Below, one piece after another: positions 5,677-61,609 of a DNA stretch of 64,000 nucleotides (position 1 is its first letter; every line of letters begins with the position of its first letter). The notes under the pieces are model-generated. The model was not told the DNA's origin, ran no database searches, and worked only from the letters and a program-made list of their open reading frames with translations. The position numbers and the translations under genes are program-made. This stretch comes from Dialister hominis (lineage in GTDB: Archaea > Thermoplasmatota > Thermoplasmata > Methanomassiliicoccales > Methanomethylophilaceae), in the NCBI GenBank assembly GCA_963640995.1, contig CAVICI010000003.1, positions 6,754-70,753 of the forward strand, in the 5' to 3' direction.

Positions 5677-5722
5677 GGGGGAGCAATCCCCCTTTCTCTT
5701 TCTCTTTCTCTTTCTCTTTCTC
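5677..5722 (+). terminator. Hairpin followed by a (TTTCTC)5 pyrimidine tract; probable proS terminator
   Basis: GGGGGA-GCAA-TCCCCC hairpin followed by TTTCTC repeats. Confidence 0.6.
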
Positions 5723-5735
5723 ATTGTTCGTTCGT

Positions 5736-5921
5736 AAAGAACTCGGAATCCGTGTATCCAAAGCGGAAAAAGAAGTCTGAATCCGTGTATTGAATGGCTG
5801 AAAAGAACTCGGAATCCGTGTATCCAAAGCGGAAAAAGAAGTCTGAATCCGTGTAAGTTAGTGGCAAAAAGAAGTCTGAATCCGTGTAAGTTAGTGGCAA
5901 AAAGAAGTCTGAATCCGTGCA
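5736..5921 (+). repeat. Six-unit tandem array, 33-bp period, 21-bp conserved core AAAGAA(G/C)TC(T/G)GAATCCGTG(T/C)A with 12-bp variable spacers
   Basis: Cores start at 5736, 5769, 5802, 5835, 5868 and 5901. Confidence 0.95.
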
Positions 5922-29573: not shown

Positions 29574-30740
29574 ATGAGCATGAACTGCAAGCTGATGCAT
29601 CGCGATGAGGAAGTGGCTTCTCTGATTCTCGACGACCATCAGGGAAGCATATTCGATGTCGTATCAGTGCGTAGCACGGATTTGCTCCCGACAGGAACTG
29701 CCCCCAGGGGAGACATCGATGTAAAGCGTCTCAAGGAATGGTGGTCATCCAGGACCATTCCGACGAGCCGTTCAGGACTGAGATTCCTTCTGGACAGTCT
29801 CGATATGGAAATCACCACTGAGCTTGCAGCCAAGTCGATGGGCCTCAGTCTGACAGATCAGTATTGGATGAAGCCTGAGGGTGCTGCTGTATCCTGGGAT
29901 TCGGTGAACTTCTTTGACAATGAGTTCTCGGATGATGTCGGAGATCTGCTATTCGGACTCGAGATCCGGAGAGGCGAATGGGACCTGGTTTCGCCCGATA
30001 CCACTTCGGACGGCGTCCTGAAGAAGAGATGGAAGATCCTCGACGGCAATCGCTGCCTCATCAAGGCGGGCGAGGCGCCGTACCTCCAGGAGCCGTTCAA
30101 TGAAGCCGCTGCGGCGATGATCGCCGATTCGATGGGGATCGACCATGTGGAGTACTCGCTGATCGAGTACGAGGGCGCACCCTGCAGCGTCTGCAAGAAC
30201 ATGATCGACGGGACGGACGAGCTCATATCGGCGCATCAGGCAGCACGCTCGGAGATCCAAGAGCCGGGCGTGCCTCTGTACGACCATCTTGTCGCATGCT
30301 GCTCGCATCACGGCTTGGACATCGTCAAGGATCTGGACAGGATGATCGTGTTCGACTACCTCATCGGCAACATGGACCGTCATCTCAACAATTTCGGCAT
30401 CATACGTGATGCGACGACCCTGGAGTGGAAGCGCTTCGCCCCGCTGTACGACAACGGGACGAGCATGGGCTGCGACTGCTATCCCGACAGGCTGATGTCG
30501 GACGCGGGCCTGGATGCGAAACCGTTCAGCCCCTACTTCCCGAGGCAGATGGAGCTCGTCCGCGACACAAGGTGGATCGACATGGGTGCTATCCGTAAGG
30601 GAATCGGCAGGGCATCGAAGGTGTTCGATGCCGTCCAGCGGTACCGCGAGGACGGCCGCGCCGATGCCGTCCGCGGGTTCCTGATGTCCCGCGCGGACGA
30701 CATCGAGGCATGGATCGAGAGGCGCAGTGGAAACGCTTAA
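29574..30740 (+). CDS. HipA-like kinase-domain protein
   Basis: DGVLKKRW, FDYLIGNMDRHLNNFG and APLYDNG motifs. Confidence 0.8.
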   Translation: MSMNCKLMHRDEEVASLILDDHQGSIFDVVSVRSTDLLPTGTAPRGDIDVKRLKEWWSSRTIPTSRSGLRFLLDSLDMEITTELAAKSMGLSLTDQYWMKPEGAAVSWDSVNFFDNEFSDDVGDLLFGLEIRRGEWDLVSPDTTSDGVLKKRWKILDGNRCLIKAGEAPYLQEPFNEAAAAMIADSMGIDHVEYSLIEYEGAPCSVCKNMIDGTDELISAHQAARSEIQEPGVPLYDHLVACCSHHGLDIVKDLDRMIVFDYLIGNMDRHLNNFGIIRDATTLEWKRFAPLYDNGTSMGCDCYPDRLMSDAGLDAKPFSPYFPRQMELVRDTRWIDMGAIRKGIGRASKVFDAVQRYREDGRADAVRGFLMSRADDIEAWIERRSGNA

Positions 30741-30824: not shown

Positions 30825-32195
30825 ATGTAGCTCCGCAGGAAGGCATACGACAAGCTCCTCCGCTGGAAAGAGGAGAGCGCCGGGGCATCGGCGATGCTGA
30901 TCAACGGCGCGAGGCGCGTGGGCAAGAGCTATCTGGCCGAGGAGTTCGCCAGGAACGAGTACCGCGATCACGTCGTCATCGACTTCTCCAACACGAGCGA
31001 CAGCATCAGGGCGGTGTTCGACGGGTACAACGGCGACATCTCCGATTTCCTGAGCGCATTGTCCACGGCGGTCGGCAGGACGCTGCCTGTCCGCGAGTCG
31101 GTCATTGTCTTCGACGAGGTCCAGCAGTGCCCTCGCGCCAGGCAGATGATCAAGCATCTGGTGAATGACGGCAGGTATGACTACATCGAGACCGGCTCGC
31201 TGATGTCCATAAAGTCGAACATAGCGGACATTGTGATCCCTTCCGAGGAGGATGACCTGCACCTCTTTCCTCTGGATTTCGAGGAGTTCCTGTGGGCCAT
31301 GGGCAAGGACGCGACAGTCCCGTACCTGAGGGAATGCCTGGAGCAGCTCCATCCGGTCGGAGATGCGATGCACAGGACGGTCATGGGGCTGTTCAGGAAG
31401 TACATGCTCGTCGGAGGGATGCCGCAGGCTGTCGCAGAGTTCGCGGAGACGGGGAGCTTCGAGAAGGCGGAGGCCGTCAAGCGCAGGATCCTGGCAGTCT
31501 ATCGCAAGGACATCGCCAGGTTCGCCAAGGGATACGAGATGAGAGTCACAGGGATATTCGACAGGATCCCTTCGGAGCTGAACCGCAAAGAGAAGAAGTT
31601 CCGCATAACCAGCATCGGCAAGAACGCCCGCAACAGGGACTTCGAGGACGCGTTCATGTGGCTGGACGACGCGATGATCGTGAACCCGTGCGTGAACGCC
31701 ACCGATCCCCGCATGGGGCTGTCCATGAGCCTGGACCTGGCCAGGCAGAAGCTGTACATGGCCGACACGGGGCTGCTGGTGACTCAGTGCCTCGAGGACG
31801 ACGAGATGACGGGGGAAGAGATCTACAAGTCCCTGCTCCTCGGAAAGCTGGGGATAAACGAGGGGATGTTCGCAGAGAACGCGGTGGCCCAATGCTTCGT
31901 GGCCAACGGCCGCAGGCTGTTCTTCTACTCCCGCAGCCCCTCGGCCGGCCAGGAGAGCGGTTCCGGGGAGGAAGCCTGGGAATCGTCGATCGAGATAGAC
32001 TTCCTCATACGCTCGGAGCGGAAGATCTGCCCTGTGGAGGTGAAGGTCTCCGACCGTGTGAGGCACGATTCCCTGGACAGGTTAAGGGAGAGGTTCGGGA
32101 AGGCGCTGGGGCAGCCATACATCCTGTGCACGAAGGACGTAGGCACGGAGGACGGGATCGTCTATCTTCCGCTGTACATGGCCGCCGTGCTCTGA
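30825..32195 (+). CDS. AAA_14/DUF4143-type ATPase (subfamily A); in-frame TAG at codon 2 (pyrrolysine read-through, nonsense allele, or internal start at 30894)
   Basis: ATG TAG CTC CGC AGG AAG GCA TAC aligns with ELKRKAY of the 5953 paralog; GARRVGKS, FDEVQ, EIDF...PVEVK. Confidence 0.8.
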
Positions 32196-35920: not shown

Positions 35921-36169
35921 GTTGTAGTGATGCGCATCCGATTTCAAAATAGTGGGCATAGATAGGCATAAACGTGACCTCGACAGCACAGGGTGTGGCC
36001 GTCCTGATGTTCAATTGCGTCGGAGATGCAGACTTCCTGACGTCCTCTCGGGCAAGGTCAAATAGCAGGGTGCATAGAGGTCGGTGTTTGACGTTATTAT
36101 CTTTGAAAAACGGGCATTTCTCGTTTCATAAACAAGAATAACAAGATGTTGGTATATCGTTGGAAAAAA

Positions 36170-36238
36170 AATCCTACAATTACCACATCAATAATCCTAC
36201 AATTACCACATCAATAATCCTACAATCCCCACACCATT
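36170..36238 (+). repeat. Three-unit 23-bp tandem repeat AATCCTACAATTACCACATCAAT (third copy degenerate)
   Basis: Units at 36170, 36193 and 36216; followed by TTTAAATA and TTTATATA boxes. Confidence 0.92.
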
Positions 36239-36267
36239 TAAATATTGTTTATATATACAACTATTTG

Positions 36268-37524
36268 ATGAGGTCGTATATTCCTAGGATAGTGGAGACG
36301 AGAATCGATAAGGCTCTTTCACTATTTGGAGGGGTTCTGATCGAGGGTCCGAAATGGTGTGGAAAAACTACGACTGCGAAGAGATATGCAAAGAGTGAGA
36401 TATACTTCGAAGATCCTGATGCATGGCCCGACATCGAGTCAGCGATAAAAACGAAGCCTTCTCGTATCCTCAAGGGTGCCAATCCCAGGCTGATCGATGA
36501 GTGGCAGGAATTTCCTCTTGTTTGGGATTCCGTGAGGATGGATATAGATCGCCGTGACGAGGAAGGCCTCTACATACTGACCGGTTCCACCACGATCGAT
36601 TGGACAAAAGTGCGGCACACCGGTACAGGACGTATTGCCAGGGCAAGGATGAACACGATGTCGTTGTACGAATCGGGATTATCTACAGGCGAAGTAAGGC
36701 TGGCCGATTTGTTCGATGGTCACGATATCGATGGGCTGTCATCGATCTCAATCGAAGAGATGGCAGAGATAATAGTGAGAGGCGGATGGCCCAGAGGTGC
36801 CGGCAAACCGCTGGCCGATGCGCGTCAGATCGTCAAGGACTATTGCGAATCCATAGTAAACTCGAGTAAGCTGGGTGGAAGGGTCGTAGACGGAGACATA
36901 ATGAGTCAATTGATGAGGTCATTAGCTCGGAATACCGCAACTTCGGCCGCAGATACAGTCTTGATCCAGGATATAAGTCGCAATGATGAGACACCGATGC
37001 ACATCAACACTTTGAGAAGCTACGAATCCGTTCTGCGCAATTGTTTCGTCACAGACGATCTGAAAGCATGGAGTCCCAAATTACGTTCAAAGACGGTATT
37101 GAGGCTGTCCGATACCCGTCACTTCTGCGATCCTGCAACAGCCGCATATTTTCTAGGCGCGTCGCCCAGCAGTCTCGTCGATGACCTCAACACATATGGC
37201 TACCTGTTCGAATCTCTGGTCGTCCGCGATCTCAGGATATACGCCGCGGCACTGGGCGGAGAAGTCCGCCACTACCATGATAGCTACGGCCTCGAAGCGG
37301 ATGCTGTGATCCTTCTGGACGATGGTCGCTGGGGCGCCATCGAGATCAAGCTGGGGTCAGGCTATGTGGACGATGCCGCGAAGAACCTGAGGAAGCTGGC
37401 CGAGCGCGTCGACACAGACGTCGCGGGCAAGCCGTCTTTCCTGGCCGTCGTCACATGCACCGCATACGCTTACCGCAGAGAAGACGGCGTCTACGTGGTC
37501 CCAATCGCATGCCTCAGGGACTGA
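36268..37524 (+). CDS. AAA_14/DUF4143-type ATPase (subfamily B)
   Basis: GPKWCGKTT, IDEWQ, GGWP, FESLVVRDL, EADA...WGAIEIKLG. Confidence 0.85.
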   Translation: MRSYIPRIVETRIDKALSLFGGVLIEGPKWCGKTTTAKRYAKSEIYFEDPDAWPDIESAIKTKPSRILKGANPRLIDEWQEFPLVWDSVRMDIDRRDEEGLYILTGSTTIDWTKVRHTGTGRIARARMNTMSLYESGLSTGEVRLADLFDGHDIDGLSSISIEEMAEIIVRGGWPRGAGKPLADARQIVKDYCESIVNSSKLGGRVVDGDIMSQLMRSLARNTATSAADTVLIQDISRNDETPMHINTLRSYESVLRNCFVTDDLKAWSPKLRSKTVLRLSDTRHFCDPATAAYFLGASPSSLVDDLNTYGYLFESLVVRDLRIYAAALGGEVRHYHDSYGLEADAVILLDDGRWGAIEIKLGSGYVDDAAKNLRKLAERVDTDVAGKPSFLAVVTCTAYAYRREDGVYVVPIACLRD

Positions 37525-38323: not shown

Positions 38324-38893
38324 TTAGAACCCCCTTATCTCCAGGACCGACAGCTTCTCGAAGAACAGCTTCAGTTCCCCGATGGAGCGGACAACATAGC
38401 CTTCCAGGGCATCTTCCAAGGATTTGTGCTCCATCAGCGACGAGACGACGATGACGGCCCTCCCATCGGGAAGGAGGTGCTCCGGTGCTCCCGAGAGCAG
38501 TTCCGGCAGCGGCCCCAGGCCGTCCGGGCCTCCAGACCAGGCCTTGGCGAGGAGACCTTCCTCGTCCACCGGCAGATAAGGGAGATTGAACAGGATGGTG
38601 TCGAACCTTCCTTCTATGTTTGAATACACGTCGGTCTCGCGGATGTCTATGCAGGCGCCGTTGGCTTCGGAATTCTTCTTTGCGAGGGCCACGGCGCAAG
38701 GGTTGATGTCACCCGCGGTCACATCGCATCCGTTCTTAGCGCAATGGATGGACACGATGCCGGATCCGCATCCAATCTCCAGAACCTTCTCTCCCGGGCG
38801 CACGTTCAGCGATTCTATCAGAAGGGCGCTATCTTCGGAAGGAGGGTAGACGTCGGGGTCTGATCCGATGGAGATGTCGAGATCGTACTGCAT
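38324..38893 (-). CDS. HemK2/PrmC-like SAM methyltransferase
   Basis: VYPPSEDS, EIGCGSG and FNLPY (NPPY variant) motifs. Confidence 0.85.
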   Translation of the reverse strand: MQYDLDISIGSDPDVYPPSEDSALLIESLNVRPGEKVLEIGCGSGIVSIHCAKNGCDVTAGDINPCAVALAKKNSEANGACIDIRETDVYSNIEGRFDTILFNLPYLPVDEEGLLAKAWSGGPDGLGPLPELLSGAPEHLLPDGRAVIVVSSLMEHKSLEDALEGYVVRSIGELKLFFEKLSVLEIRGF

Positions 38894-39050: not shown

Positions 39051-39081
39051 GGAAATTATTATATACTATTCCGTGGAATAG
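39051..39081 (+). promoter_or_regulatory. BRE/TATA promoter with adjacent palindrome CTATTCC-GT-GGAATAG
   Basis: GGAAATTATTATATA followed by a perfect 7-bp inverted repeat at 39066-39081; no credible CDS downstream. Confidence 0.55.
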
Positions 39082-39396
39082 GGGAATTAACCAAGAATGT
39101 TACCTCACACAAAGAGATGACAGCAGTTCGGCGTGCAAAAGCACAACGGAAGCTTGGAAGTGTGTTCCGCCCAGCAATGGGTCGGTTCGGAGAAATCCGA
39201 GTCAGACAGGCACACCTGGCTACGATTTAAAAATCGCGGTTGGCGTACGAATATCAGCAAAAGCATCACGTATAGCACCTGGCGTTAAAAAACCGGGGTG
39301 TTGTAAATGGTGAAGATCCTGTTGGCGCAGCTCTTTGCAAAAAAGCGAAGCCCAGTGCCAAGAGTGACGCTCGTTGCAAAAAGCAATGCAATCCCG

Positions 39397-39950
39397 AAAA
39401 GGAAAAAGAAGCTCCATGTAAAAAATGAAGCTTCTGTAAGCTAAGCTCCTGGGGTAAAAAGCTAAGCTCAAAAAGCTAAGCTCCTAGGGAAAAAAGCATA
39501 GTGATCCTGTAAAAGGAAAAAGAAGCTCCATGTAAAAAATGAAGCTTCTGTAAGCTAAGCTCCTGGGGTAAAAAGCTAAGCTCAAAAAGCTAAGCTCCTA
39601 GGGAAAAAAGCATAGTGATCCTGTAAAAGGAAAAAGAAGCTCCATGTAAAAAATGAAGCTTCTGTAAGCTAAGCTCCTGGGGTAAAAAGCTAAGCTCAAA
39701 AAGCTAAGCTCCTAGAAAGGAAAAGAAGATCCATGTAAAAAGTGAAGCTTCTGTAAGCTAAGCTCCGAGGGAAAAAAAGCAAGGCTCCTGTAATAGGAAA
39801 AAGAAGCTCCATGTAAAAAATGAAGCTTCTGTAAGCTAAGCTCCGAGGGAAAAAAAGCAAGGCTCCTGTAATAGGAAAAAGAAGCTCCATGTAAAAAATG
39901 AAGCTTCTGTAAGCTAAGCTCCGAGGGAAAAAAAGCAAGGCTCCTGTAAG
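39397..39950 (+). repeat. Six-copy composite tandem repeat (spacings 114, 114, 89, 78, 78 bp)
   Basis: AGAAGCTCCATGTAAAAAATGAAGCTTCTGTAAGCTAAGCTCC at 39407, 39521, 39635, 39724 (variant), 39802 and 39880. Confidence 0.95.
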
Positions 39951-40069
39951 GGAAACAGACTCCATGCAAATAACGGCAATAGGAATGCTGATATGGCTCT
40001 GATTAATCAGGCAAACGGGCGAAAGCACGTTTGTTGTCAGACAACACCGCCTAGGAAACTAGGCTCAGT

Positions 40070-40111
40070 CCAAGGGCGTTTACGCCCTTGGCATTTTTTT
40101 TTTATTTTTTT
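40070..40111 (+). terminator. Strong hairpin plus poly-T terminator on the + strand
   Basis: CCAAGGGCGT-TT-ACGCCCTTGG followed by a long T tract. Confidence 0.8.
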
Positions 40112-41487
40112 CATTTGGTACCGTCCATTCTGTGGACTGTGCATTTCATACAGTAGTGCTTGAATCCGGTCTTCGCCAGCCAGAGCATCAGCGACCCGCC
40201 GATGATCTCTGCCACGACCAGGCTCCAGTATATGGCATCCAGCGAGATTGAGCTGCCTAAGAACAGCAGCACTACAATCAAGATGTTCCTGGCGAACGAC
40301 GAGAACATCGAGATCTGCGCCATGCGCAGGGATTGGAGGATCGACGATCCGATGTCAATCATCCCGACGAACGGGATCAGCAAGGCATAGATCCTCAGCA
40401 CATGTGCGAACTCCGGGCGGAGCTCGGCCATGGTGGGGGAGTATGTGAACGGGATGATCGCCCAGTCCGCGAATATGAACAACACTGCGGCGATGACGAT
40501 CATCCAGAGCATCGTCACAGCGAGGGAGTAGCGATATCCTTTCTGGGCTTTCTCTGCATTCCCGGATCCAAGGGCTGCCGAGCATACAGGTATGAGCGCT
40601 GAGCCCACGGCCTGAGAGACCACCTCAGCCAAAGTGACGAACCTCCATGGTATGTTGTAGAACGTGGCCGCTACCGTGCCTCCGCATGCGATCACGAAGA
40701 TCCTCTGGACCATGGACATGACGCTGATGAGCATGGATTCCGTGGCGCGGGGGATGCCCACGAACAGGATCTCCTTCATGTCTCCGAGGTTCGGGCGCAT
40801 GTCCGATATCCTGAGCTTGAGGAAGAGCGCTCTGCGCCTGTACCACCATATGCCTATCCCTGCAGAAGCTGCTGACGATATGACCGTCGCCCACCCGGCA
40901 CCGGCCAGTCCCATGTGCAGGCCGTAGATCATCACCGGGTCCAGGGCGATGTTCATTGCCGCACCGGCCAGGAGCATGATCATGGATTTCTTGGCGGCCC
41001 CTTCCGCACGGATGATGCCGGATACGGTCTCGCTGAGGATGACCAGCGTCCCGGCAAGGACCTGGGGGTAGATGTATGACTTGCAGAGGTCCATGATGTC
41101 CCATGCGCCCATCATCTCCACTGCCGGGACGACGGCGATGAAGAGGATCGGCGTCGTAGCGGCCCCTATCATCAAAGACAGCACCAGGGTCTGCGATGCC
41201 AGCCGGTCGGCCGATGCATGGTCGTGCCTGCCGAGGCATCTGGCGATGGCCGTTGTCGCGCCGATCCCGATCCCTATCCCCAGACCGGACACGATCCAGT
41301 AGAACGGAGATATGGTGGACACCGCGGATGACGCGTCCGATCCCAGCCCGGAGCACCAGGACGTGTCCGCGAAGAGGTTGATCTGCACCACCAGATAGGA
41401 CACGATCAGCGGGAGGAGCATGGAGCGGATGGCCTGGCCCGGCTCCCCGAGCATGCGATCCAGGTCCTCGCTTTCCTCCTCAGGCAT
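40111..41487 (-). CDS. MATE-family efflux transporter
   Basis: Multi-TM protein; RAEGAAK, NIALDP and GLAGAGWAT motifs. Confidence 0.9.
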   Translation of the reverse strand: MPEEESEDLDRMLGEPGQAIRSMLLPLIVSYLVVQINLFADTSWCSGLGSDASSAVSTISPFYWIVSGLGIGIGIGATTAIARCLGRHDHASADRLASQTLVLSLMIGAATTPILFIAVVPAVEMMGAWDIMDLCKSYIYPQVLAGTLVILSETVSGIIRAEGAAKKSMIMLLAGAAMNIALDPVMIYGLHMGLAGAGWATVISSAASAGIGIWWYRRRALFLKLRISDMRPNLGDMKEILFVGIPRATESMLISVMSMVQRIFVIACGGTVAATFYNIPWRFVTLAEVVSQAVGSALIPVCSAALGSGNAEKAQKGYRYSLAVTMLWMIVIAAVLFIFADWAIIPFTYSPTMAELRPEFAHVLRIYALLIPFVGMIDIGSSILQSLRMAQISMFSSFARNILIVVLLFLGSSISLDAIYWSLVVAEIIGGSLMLWLAKTGFKHYCMKCTVHRMDGTK

Positions 41488-58045: not shown

Positions 58046-58134
58046 ATCATCCCAAACGTGCGATAAACGACCTTTCACATCATCCCAAACGTGCGATAAA
58101 CGACCTTTCACATCATCCCAAACGTGCGATAAAC
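58046..58134 (+). repeat. 33-bp tandem repeat ATCATCCCAAACGTGCGATAAACGACCTTTCAC x2.7
   Basis: Units at 58046, 58079 and 58112. Confidence 0.95.
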
Positions 58135-61513: not shown

Positions 61514-61581
61514 CCCTCAACTCACCCAATGAAAATACCCTCAACTCACCCAATGAAAATACCCTCAACTCACCCAATGAA
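61514..61581 (+). repeat. 24-bp tandem repeat CCCTCAACTCACCCAATGAAAATA x2.8
   Basis: Units at 61514, 61538 and 61562; abuts ATATAAAT box. Confidence 0.95.
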
Positions 61582-61609
61582 TATAAATGAAGACGTATTT
61601 TTTCTACTC

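Follow-up and report, generated by a model that had tools for sequence, protein, structure and literature searches.

A region of about 1 kb separates two protein genes in the window analysed here, a 64,000-nt stretch of contig C3 of its source genome (G000). What does it encode? The preliminary description took it for a structured RNA of about 1 kb outside the known families, and this holds in part: the region is structured, bears a promoter and belongs to no Rfam family, but the conserved RNA amounts to about 280 nt, and the roughly 730-nt middle is a hypervariable insert. The element is one copy of a multi-copy, modular non-coding RNA (ncRNA) gene family, apparently a real, conserved and undescribed archaeal class. 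An abstract-level literature search found no description of such a family (candidate lists in supplements could contain the motif). The window copy and its neighbours are laid out as follows.

38324..38893, - strand: gene for a HemK2/MTQ2-family methyltransferase, the divergent neighbour; marks the insertion site and lies outside the RNA
39059..39065, + strand: archaeal TATA box, TTATATA (sequence and family-wide TATA spacing)
39090..39157, + strand: leader domain, the most conserved part of the RNA, in all 28 aligned copies
39091-95/39153-57, + strand: leader helix P1, enclosing hairpins P2 and P3
39098-39122, + strand: leader hairpin P2
39123-39153, + strand: leader hairpin P3
39160..39259, + strand: 5' half of the core (folding and homologue comparison)
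39160-66, + strand: P4 strand, with a local (39209-15) or a distal (40043-47) partner
39170 and 39187, + strand: GNRA-capped hairpins P5 and P6, in the 5' half of the core
39201-09/40034-42, + strand: helix P7, 5' strand in the 5' core half and 3' strand in the 3' domain
39216-43, + strand: hairpin P8
39251-59/39986-94, + strand: closing helix P9, whose two strands flank the insert
39264..39312, + strand: first insert hairpin (predicted fold; requires G-U pairs on this strand)
39317..39367, + strand: putative degenerate tRNA-like unit, aligning to the start of the paralogues' first tRNA-like unit
39397..39715, + strand: 114-nt tandem repeat, 2.8 copies at 100% identity; hairpins with A-rich loops and linkers
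39721..39954, + strand: 78-nt tandem repeat, 3 copies (repeat scan), related to the 114-nt unit
39986..40064, + strand: 3' domain, with the P9 3' strand, P10, P11, the P7 3' strand, the distal P4 partner and P12
40049-64, + strand: hairpin P12
40070..40111, + strand: terminal 9-bp hairpin (40070-40091) and T tract (40094-40111)
40111..41487, - strand: gene for a MATE transporter, the convergent neighbour; marks the insertion site

Much of what had been read from the letters is borne out. The TATA box is present at 39059, GNRA-capped hairpins occur at 39170, 39187, 40019 and 40049, and the proposed hairpin and T-tract terminator does lie on the + strand. The sequence of the terminal hairpin is kept in g1-type copies, and it probably belongs to the RNA besides signalling termination; at the other end, transcription would start at about 39085-39090. 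The region had also been called A-rich and free of credible reading frames. A makes up 37% of it (43% in the repeats) against 22% of the whole window, and the four ORFs of 83-110 aa that overlap it are not conserved, because homologues carry 1-nt indels in the 5' domain. Further tandem repeats lie elsewhere in the window, at 5692-5919 (33/66-nt units), 36170-36233 (23), 58046-58134 (33) and 61514-61585 (24).

Folding was scored against 200 dinucleotide shuffles. The argument that G-U pairs favour the + strand is upheld at 39260-39396, with z -4.2 on the + strand versus -1.4 on the - strand, and several homologues have a hairpin in the place of the window's first insert hairpin when aligned. 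The 3' domain scores -4.9 on + and -4.4 on -, the 5' domain on its own folds in an ordinary manner (z -1.5), and for the window repeats the - strand folds at least as well (z -4.8 versus -3.5 on +). Family-wide, 18 of 21 inserts have the lower folding energy on the + strand.

No Rfam model matched the region at its gathering score in the cmscan that the preliminary description had proposed; the best hit reached 21.5 bits (E 0.38), and weak nrdJ and Qrr matches were terminator-like only. The reported lack of RNase P and intron hallmarks is likewise confirmed. There is no RF00373 match in the region, and the RNase P RNA of the genome is encoded on C17. A group I intron would show the G-site consensus; the P7-like helix here has a variable central pair or a bulge in place of the G site, and the region has its own promoter, no exon and no Rfam match. 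A CRISPR or TIGR array was also rejected, as the units are identical head to tail and lack spacers.

How widely is the element distributed? By BLAST both ends, and never the middle, were found again at other sites of G000 and in 7 of the 173 remaining genomes of the family. A covariance model of the 5' part built on 10 sequences (R1) reached a third genus, and an iterated model of 28 sequences (R2) was run on 151 family genomes and on all 62 genomes of the genus, two sets that between them take in all 174 of the family. It gave 30 leader matches, one of them a leader remnant, in 12 of the 174 Methanomethylophilaceae genomes, with up to six per genome and three genera represented (g1, 7/62; g10, 1/12; g12, 4/21). 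Homologues with compensatory changes, by which the preliminary description had proposed to judge the RNA, therefore exist in Methanomethylophilaceae genomes. G000 itself holds five copies of the leader, and two of its contigs start with an orphan 3' end. These starts (C18:1-90 and C54:1-98) are near-identical to the 3' end of the C10 RNA gene and then run into different DNA, with a methyltransferase-like ORF following in C54; they could be further copies, an attachment-site duplication or the product of a strain mixture.

Outside the family, samples searched with strict filters gave no match in 134 genomes of the class (R1) or 87 of the order (R2), and one phylum genome of 134 had a 26-nt match at E 0.024, which was taken as chance. 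Four pattern scans of viral contigs produced 27 loci, none of which passes the model; one of them (L025) is a coding region. Phage and plasmid records held no real match, and none of 26 loci from a metagenome scan was convincing (best E 0.017). A GTDB-wide pattern scan returned 40 loci, of which 20 pass R1; all 20 are titled from a single assembly series, and the titles of those passing, in the range L083-L116, name assorted gut bacteria. Among these, flanking ORFs of the 15 loci compared match G000 proteins, often at 60-96%, so the bacterial titles look mislabelled, and the 20 loci were discounted as bacterial occurrences. Since they come from one series, the distribution may reflect a common host or dataset, and remote homologues may exist.

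Is the element a gene for an RNA? In 28 of 29 copies a regular expression finds a TATA-like box 28-32 nt upstream of the conserved 5' end; in the 29th a similar one is visible by eye. The spacer between box and 5' end is not conserved. The RNA would be transcribed from this TATA promoter of its own. The leader of about 68 nt, a three-way junction, is the only part common to all copies. Its helices P1-P3 pair in 96-98% of cells of the 28-copy alignment, and the first P1 pair is C-G in 12 copies and U-A in 15. Across the alignment as a whole, pairing is seen in 94% of cells and two-sided change in 33 of 51 pairs, a figure that none of 500 shuffles reaches; the alignment had been fitted to the model, can be trusted chiefly in the leader and is poor in the g12 core. 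RNAalifold on unfitted alignments gave two-sided changes in 6/51 and 8/32 pairs. Loop letters vary among homologues yet stay GNRA. Several g1 copies (in L009, L010, L011, L016, L021 and L004) share a CATCCA-type repeat motif some 20-80 nt before the TATA box; it is weak ahead of the window copy, and may be a regulator site or mark where the wzt trailer ends.

Long forms continue from the leader into a core, the 5' half of which pairs with its 3' half around a tandem-repeat insert of 150-950 nt. Among eight g1 copies (G021 was left out for its misaligned 3' domain) P9 pairs in 69/72 cells, P7 in 62/68 and distal P4 in 40/40. Column shuffles of these eight copies were not beaten (352 of 2000 as good for P9, 368 of 2000 for P7), because variation among g1 copies is low. 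An alignment-free swap test on nine long copies, with kinship uncontrolled, was also applied: a copy's own two strands paired better than exchanged strands did, both for P9 (62 of 20000 permutations did as well) and for P7 (10 of 20000). The earlier proposal that the ends enclose the repeat domain through the 39251/39986 pair thus gains support from homologues. A second complement proposed there, 39118/40032, does exist in the window, but homologues pair in only 51/66 cells, 273 of 500 shuffles equal that, and own partners did no better in the swap test (2144 of 20000 as good; nine copies, kinship uncontrolled). This long-range pair is probably wrong; more likely, the 40032-side strand pairs with 39201-39209 and the 39118-side strand forms a local hairpin. 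Eight g12 copies have the same nested long-range helices in different letters, and the leader and clasped core are thus a predicted fold that homologue comparison supports. In predicted folds of both subfamilies, g1 and g12, the P4 strand pairs either locally or with the 3' end; these alternatives may perhaps form a folding switch, and the clasp would confer stability on the RNA.

How did the family spread? On a GatE tree of 30 genomes, 11 of them carriers (a quick search, with G128 left out for its three partial matches), carriers fall in four groups and the RNA trait needs four changes, all forced by well-supported branches. The carriers share a gene cassette. A close subfamily of a Wzt-like ABC ATPase with Sel1 repeats is present in 11 of 12, with 62-100% identity; 25 other genomes reach no more than 45%. 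A BspA-type LRR protein is encoded upstream in 12 of 12 (41-100%, versus no more than 34% in 12 others). In the Wzt tree, drawn without G126 (truncated) and G127 (not found), the 10 included carriers form one side of a branch with support 100, and G021 and G125 are nested among g1 sequences. The RNA directly follows wzt in seven of 11 genomes, lies at 2.5 kb in one and is absent there in two, and one contig ends in the gene. By phylogeny and gene order, the RNA family has been co-transferred with the BspA-LRR/wzm/wzt-Sel1 cassette; the linkage may be functional or hitch-hiking. Neighbours of the RNA copies are chromosomal or cassette genes, and the linked genes (BspA-type LRR protein, Wzm, Wzt-Sel1) have no known tRNA connection. 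At distant Wzt loci, no RNA was found in 22 searched with filters off (best E 0.16).

The site of the window copy fits such a history. One contig of G130 reads HemK, LRR, wzm, wzt, RNA, MATE; G000 and G126 retain the RNA alone at the HemK-MATE site; and HemK and MATE abut in the non-carriers G113, G122 and G084. On this series the window copy most likely came with the cassette and remained when the proteins moved or were lost. Other genes were seen near RNA copies. A YafQ-like toxin ORF (G000 C41:3018-3536) lies between the two C41 copies, and a homologue follows a G126 copy. By Pfam the window encodes a HipA-like kinase and an AAA_14/DUF4143 ATPase (29574-30740, 36160-37524); the ORF at 30894-32195 looks like a second ATPase of that type, and similar ATPases flank several RNA copies.

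Could the element simply be a DNA-level repeat or a non-autonomous mobile element (MITE, SINE-like or REP-like) without a functional RNA? Its patchy, multi-copy occurrence at unrelated sites and the empty HemK-MATE site of the three non-carriers would suit such an origin. This is nevertheless highly improbable: the promoter is held at a fixed spacing outside the transcribed part, G-U and GNRA conservation is seen on one strand, the repeat scan found no terminal inverted repeats and no target duplication was seen by eye, and the protein cassette explains the spread. A retroposon was rejected, as no RVT_1 reverse transcriptase was found in G000.

What, then, does the insert carry? Inserts range from about 150 to 950 nt and contain unrelated tandem repeats from copy to copy. 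tRNA cloverleaves occur in the inserts of both C41 copies and the C10 copy of G000 and of the G130 copy, so that only four of 17 full-length long copies have units called as tRNA by Rfam or ARAGORN. In nine short-form copies the 3' domain is missing and tRNA-like units form the end of the RNA; seven of these copies have complete units and two have partial ones, and little is present besides leader and units. In the shortest variants, L034 and L021, the leader is followed by a single small hairpin and then by a tRNA-like domain whose D arm is reduced and which has a long stem at the anticodon position; the L034 copy is convergent with an ORF that resembles ribosomal protein L15e.

The tRNA-shaped units score 37-61 bits on RF00005 and retain acceptor, D and T arms, with non-standard anticodon arms. 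A regular expression that demanded D and T motifs collected 22 units in 17 regions, many of them tandem duplicates and not independent. The T stem is fully paired in 21 of these 22 and the acceptor stem has at least 6 of 7 pairs in 17; both stems stay paired with changed letters, while anticodon arms are altered in unit after unit. Anticodon loops have 3-8 nt, or C33/C37, and are almost never canonical. By our reading, a 7-nt loop with U33 and purine 37 is seen in one unit of 22, its anticodon being AUC, and to our knowledge A34 anticodons are not used in archaea; the units were accordingly rejected as functional tRNA genes, for which a standard anticodon in such a loop was the yardstick. ARAGORN called the units of C41:2110-4959, C2:47917-47989 and C10:652-725 as four tRNA-Phe(AAA), two tRNAs with 8-nt loops, an Asp(ATC) and a Leu(AAG). 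Annotation pipelines would miscall such units as tRNA-Phe(AAA), Asp(ATC) or Leu(AAG), creating false tRNAs with odd anticodons.

The best host tRNA match differs between loci (Thr, Ala and weakly Lys), which suggests that host tRNAs were captured repeatedly. Two units at L041:1614-2128 resemble, anticodon arm excepted, a tRNA-Thr(CGT) gene about 250 nt downstream, the likely donor of these adjacent units. In the window copy the insert appears to have decayed to A-rich hairpins with one decayed tRNA-like unit. ARAGORN and Rfam called no tRNA at 39317..39367, which would have retained an acceptor-like stem and a 5' D-arm motif and lost its T arm. Many cloverleaf-free inserts are still rich in T-loop-like or D-arm-like 5-mers, and the D-arm-like 5-mer occurs 21 times in the window insert against 0.7 expected. 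The A-rich repeats of the L046 insert, a g12 copy, share a motif with window 39698-39725 despite the different genera.

Our best guess, a tentative one that falls somewhat short of an even chance, is that the RNA is a stable scaffold displaying tRNA-derived decoys. A stand-alone gene would be transcribed from its own promoter and the transcript would fold into the leader, to which long forms add a core that closes the insert off as one large loop. This loop may act as a cargo bay in which host tRNA genes or pieces are captured and amplified in tandem; as far as the units themselves can tell, both capture and tandem amplification of tRNA sequence have taken place. Because captured units keep the elbow formed by acceptor, D and T arms and lose the decoding anticodon arm, the RNA could serve as a multivalent decoy, binding proteins that are specific for the shape of tRNA or for motifs derived from it, candidates being tRNA-cleaving or tRNA-modifying toxins and processing enzymes. 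The window cargo would have drifted to A-rich hairpin repeats on a D-arm-like motif, through another binding partner or decay, and the family would have spread horizontally with the surface-protein/polysaccharide-exporter cassette and then duplicated within genomes. A fuller version is possible though doubtful: a new class of modular RNA in archaea, a horizontally spreading scaffold that repeatedly captures host tRNA genes, alters their anticodon arms and presents tandem decoys to tRNA-targeting proteins (toxins, defence/counter-defence nucleases), with several scaffolds per genome bearing different cargo. Against a decoy role, the window copy has no callable tRNA unit; with units called in so few long copies, tRNA cargo is evidently not required. 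No binding partner of the RNA was found, and the perfect repeats suggest recent slippage, which can be neutral.

It is somewhat unlikely, by comparison, that function resides in leader and core only, as an RNP or a ligand-binding or catalytic RNA, with the insert a tolerant loop of neutral tRNA pseudogenes and repeats; the RNA might possibly act with the Wzm/Wzt-Sel1 exporter, as OLE does with OapA. Such a reading draws on the leader as the sole universal part, on inserts of such unequal length and unrelated repeats, 13 of 17 long copies lacking a callable unit, and on the match between carriers and the close cassette subfamily. It does not account for stems that stay paired through letter changes beside anticodon arms altered time after time, nor for short forms with hardly anything beyond leader and units, related cassettes exist without a nearby RNA, and in G000 and G046 no copy adjoins the cassette.

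A further possibility is that RNase P and RNase Z cleave a precursor wherever it has a tRNA-like unit, as they do in releasing the tRNA-like mascRNA from MALAT1; the active products would then be the leader, small tRNA-like RNAs and hairpins from the spacers. The host has RNase P RNA, many units have intact 7-bp acceptor stems, and two terminal units (L044:1380-1450 and L045:600-670) have an acceptor stem like that of tRNA-Ala (G3-U70 by our numbering), U at 73 and an encoded CCA at the end; the two are possible aminoacylation substrates. As far as the cited account describes it, M. smegmatis YrlA with its 7-bp acceptor stem is cleaved and CCA-tailed (PMC4201824). Processing is still quite unlikely as the main function, since the window copy and most long copies keep the clasping 5' and 3' helices and have no unit to cut, and the acceptor stem of several internal units runs past position 73.

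The decoy scaffold, if true, would be a new way to protect or regulate tRNA metabolism. Natural variants separate its parts (the leader with a single tRNA-like unit, and the full clasp around either tRNA arrays or other repeats), so the purpose of variable tRNA-containing linkers is directly testable. A clasp that tolerates 150-950 nt of cargo could also serve as a stable expression scaffold in methanogens. The novelty would lie in the RNA class, and the mechanism is a proposal.

How does the class compare with known RNAs? CsrB and RsmZ sponge RNAs carry repeated protein-binding hairpins on one RNA, with a fixed GGA as the CsrB motif; here the repeated motif varies between copies and there is no Rfam match. 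OLE was considered as a large RNA acting with a membrane protein, OapA, and likewise gave no Rfam match. YrlA (RF02553) is closer in that, in the cited description, a stem module of protein-binding type is joined to a tRNA-like domain mimicking D, T and acceptor arms (PMC4201824). A domain with these arms is found in the paralogues and homologues, not in the window copy, and differs from that of YrlA in its full, altered anticodon arm and its arrangement in arrays. RF02553 scored 30.4 and 24.3 bits over tRNA-like units, below the cut-off of 69. Y RNAs are 80-130 nt long and encoded beside Ro60, whereas TROVE (PF05731, Ro60) was found in neither G000 nor five of five other carriers, the control being positive in 2 of 14 genomes; membership among Y RNAs was rejected on these grounds.

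The likeness in style to GOLLD and ROOL that had been noted at the outset is a fair comparison. ROOL (RF03087), as far as its published descriptions go, is a large gut and rumen RNA whose 5' and 3' regions intertwine and whose linker is not conserved (PMC12286853, PMC5737381). Its conserved fold of about 580 nt has six junctions and three pseudoknots, against about 280 nt of mainly nested helices here; RF03087 gave no match in G000, with control genomes silent too, and none by cmscan at E<=10 or E<=1. GOLLD (RF02032) is described, in the same limited sense, as a pair of conserved domains, 5' and 3', flanking a variable linker in which a tRNA is sometimes found (PMC12286853, PMC12990946), a plan that is shared here in architecture only. 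RF02032 had no match at E<=10 in G000 and none by cmscan of the region or of 23 homologue loci, and neither a phage or prophage nor a tRNA-island context was seen, so membership was rejected. In the accounts consulted GOLLD is bacterial, phage-associated and 700-830 nt long, with a universal 3' domain and an embedded tRNA-Phe; the present RNA is archaeal, has about 280 conserved nt and a universal 5' leader, does not occur in the viral contigs scanned, and forms tandem unit arrays with non-standard anticodon arms in several copies per genome.

Both of these RNAs are reported to hold variable linkers inside RNA cages (PMC12286853, PMC12990946, PMC5737381). An RNA-only oligomer or cage of this kind, enclosing its variable linker, is distinctly improbable here. 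The plan of conserved ends around a linker is the same in the parts described (PMC12286853, PMC12990946) and several GNRA loops are conserved, yet the conserved part is far smaller than in either RNA, no covariance model matches, no complementary loop pairs for kissing contacts were seen by eye, and the short forms have no 3' domain. GOLLD, ROOL and OLE are, as their accounts present them, large ornate RNAs of bacteria; the family described here would be an archaeal class with a different fold.
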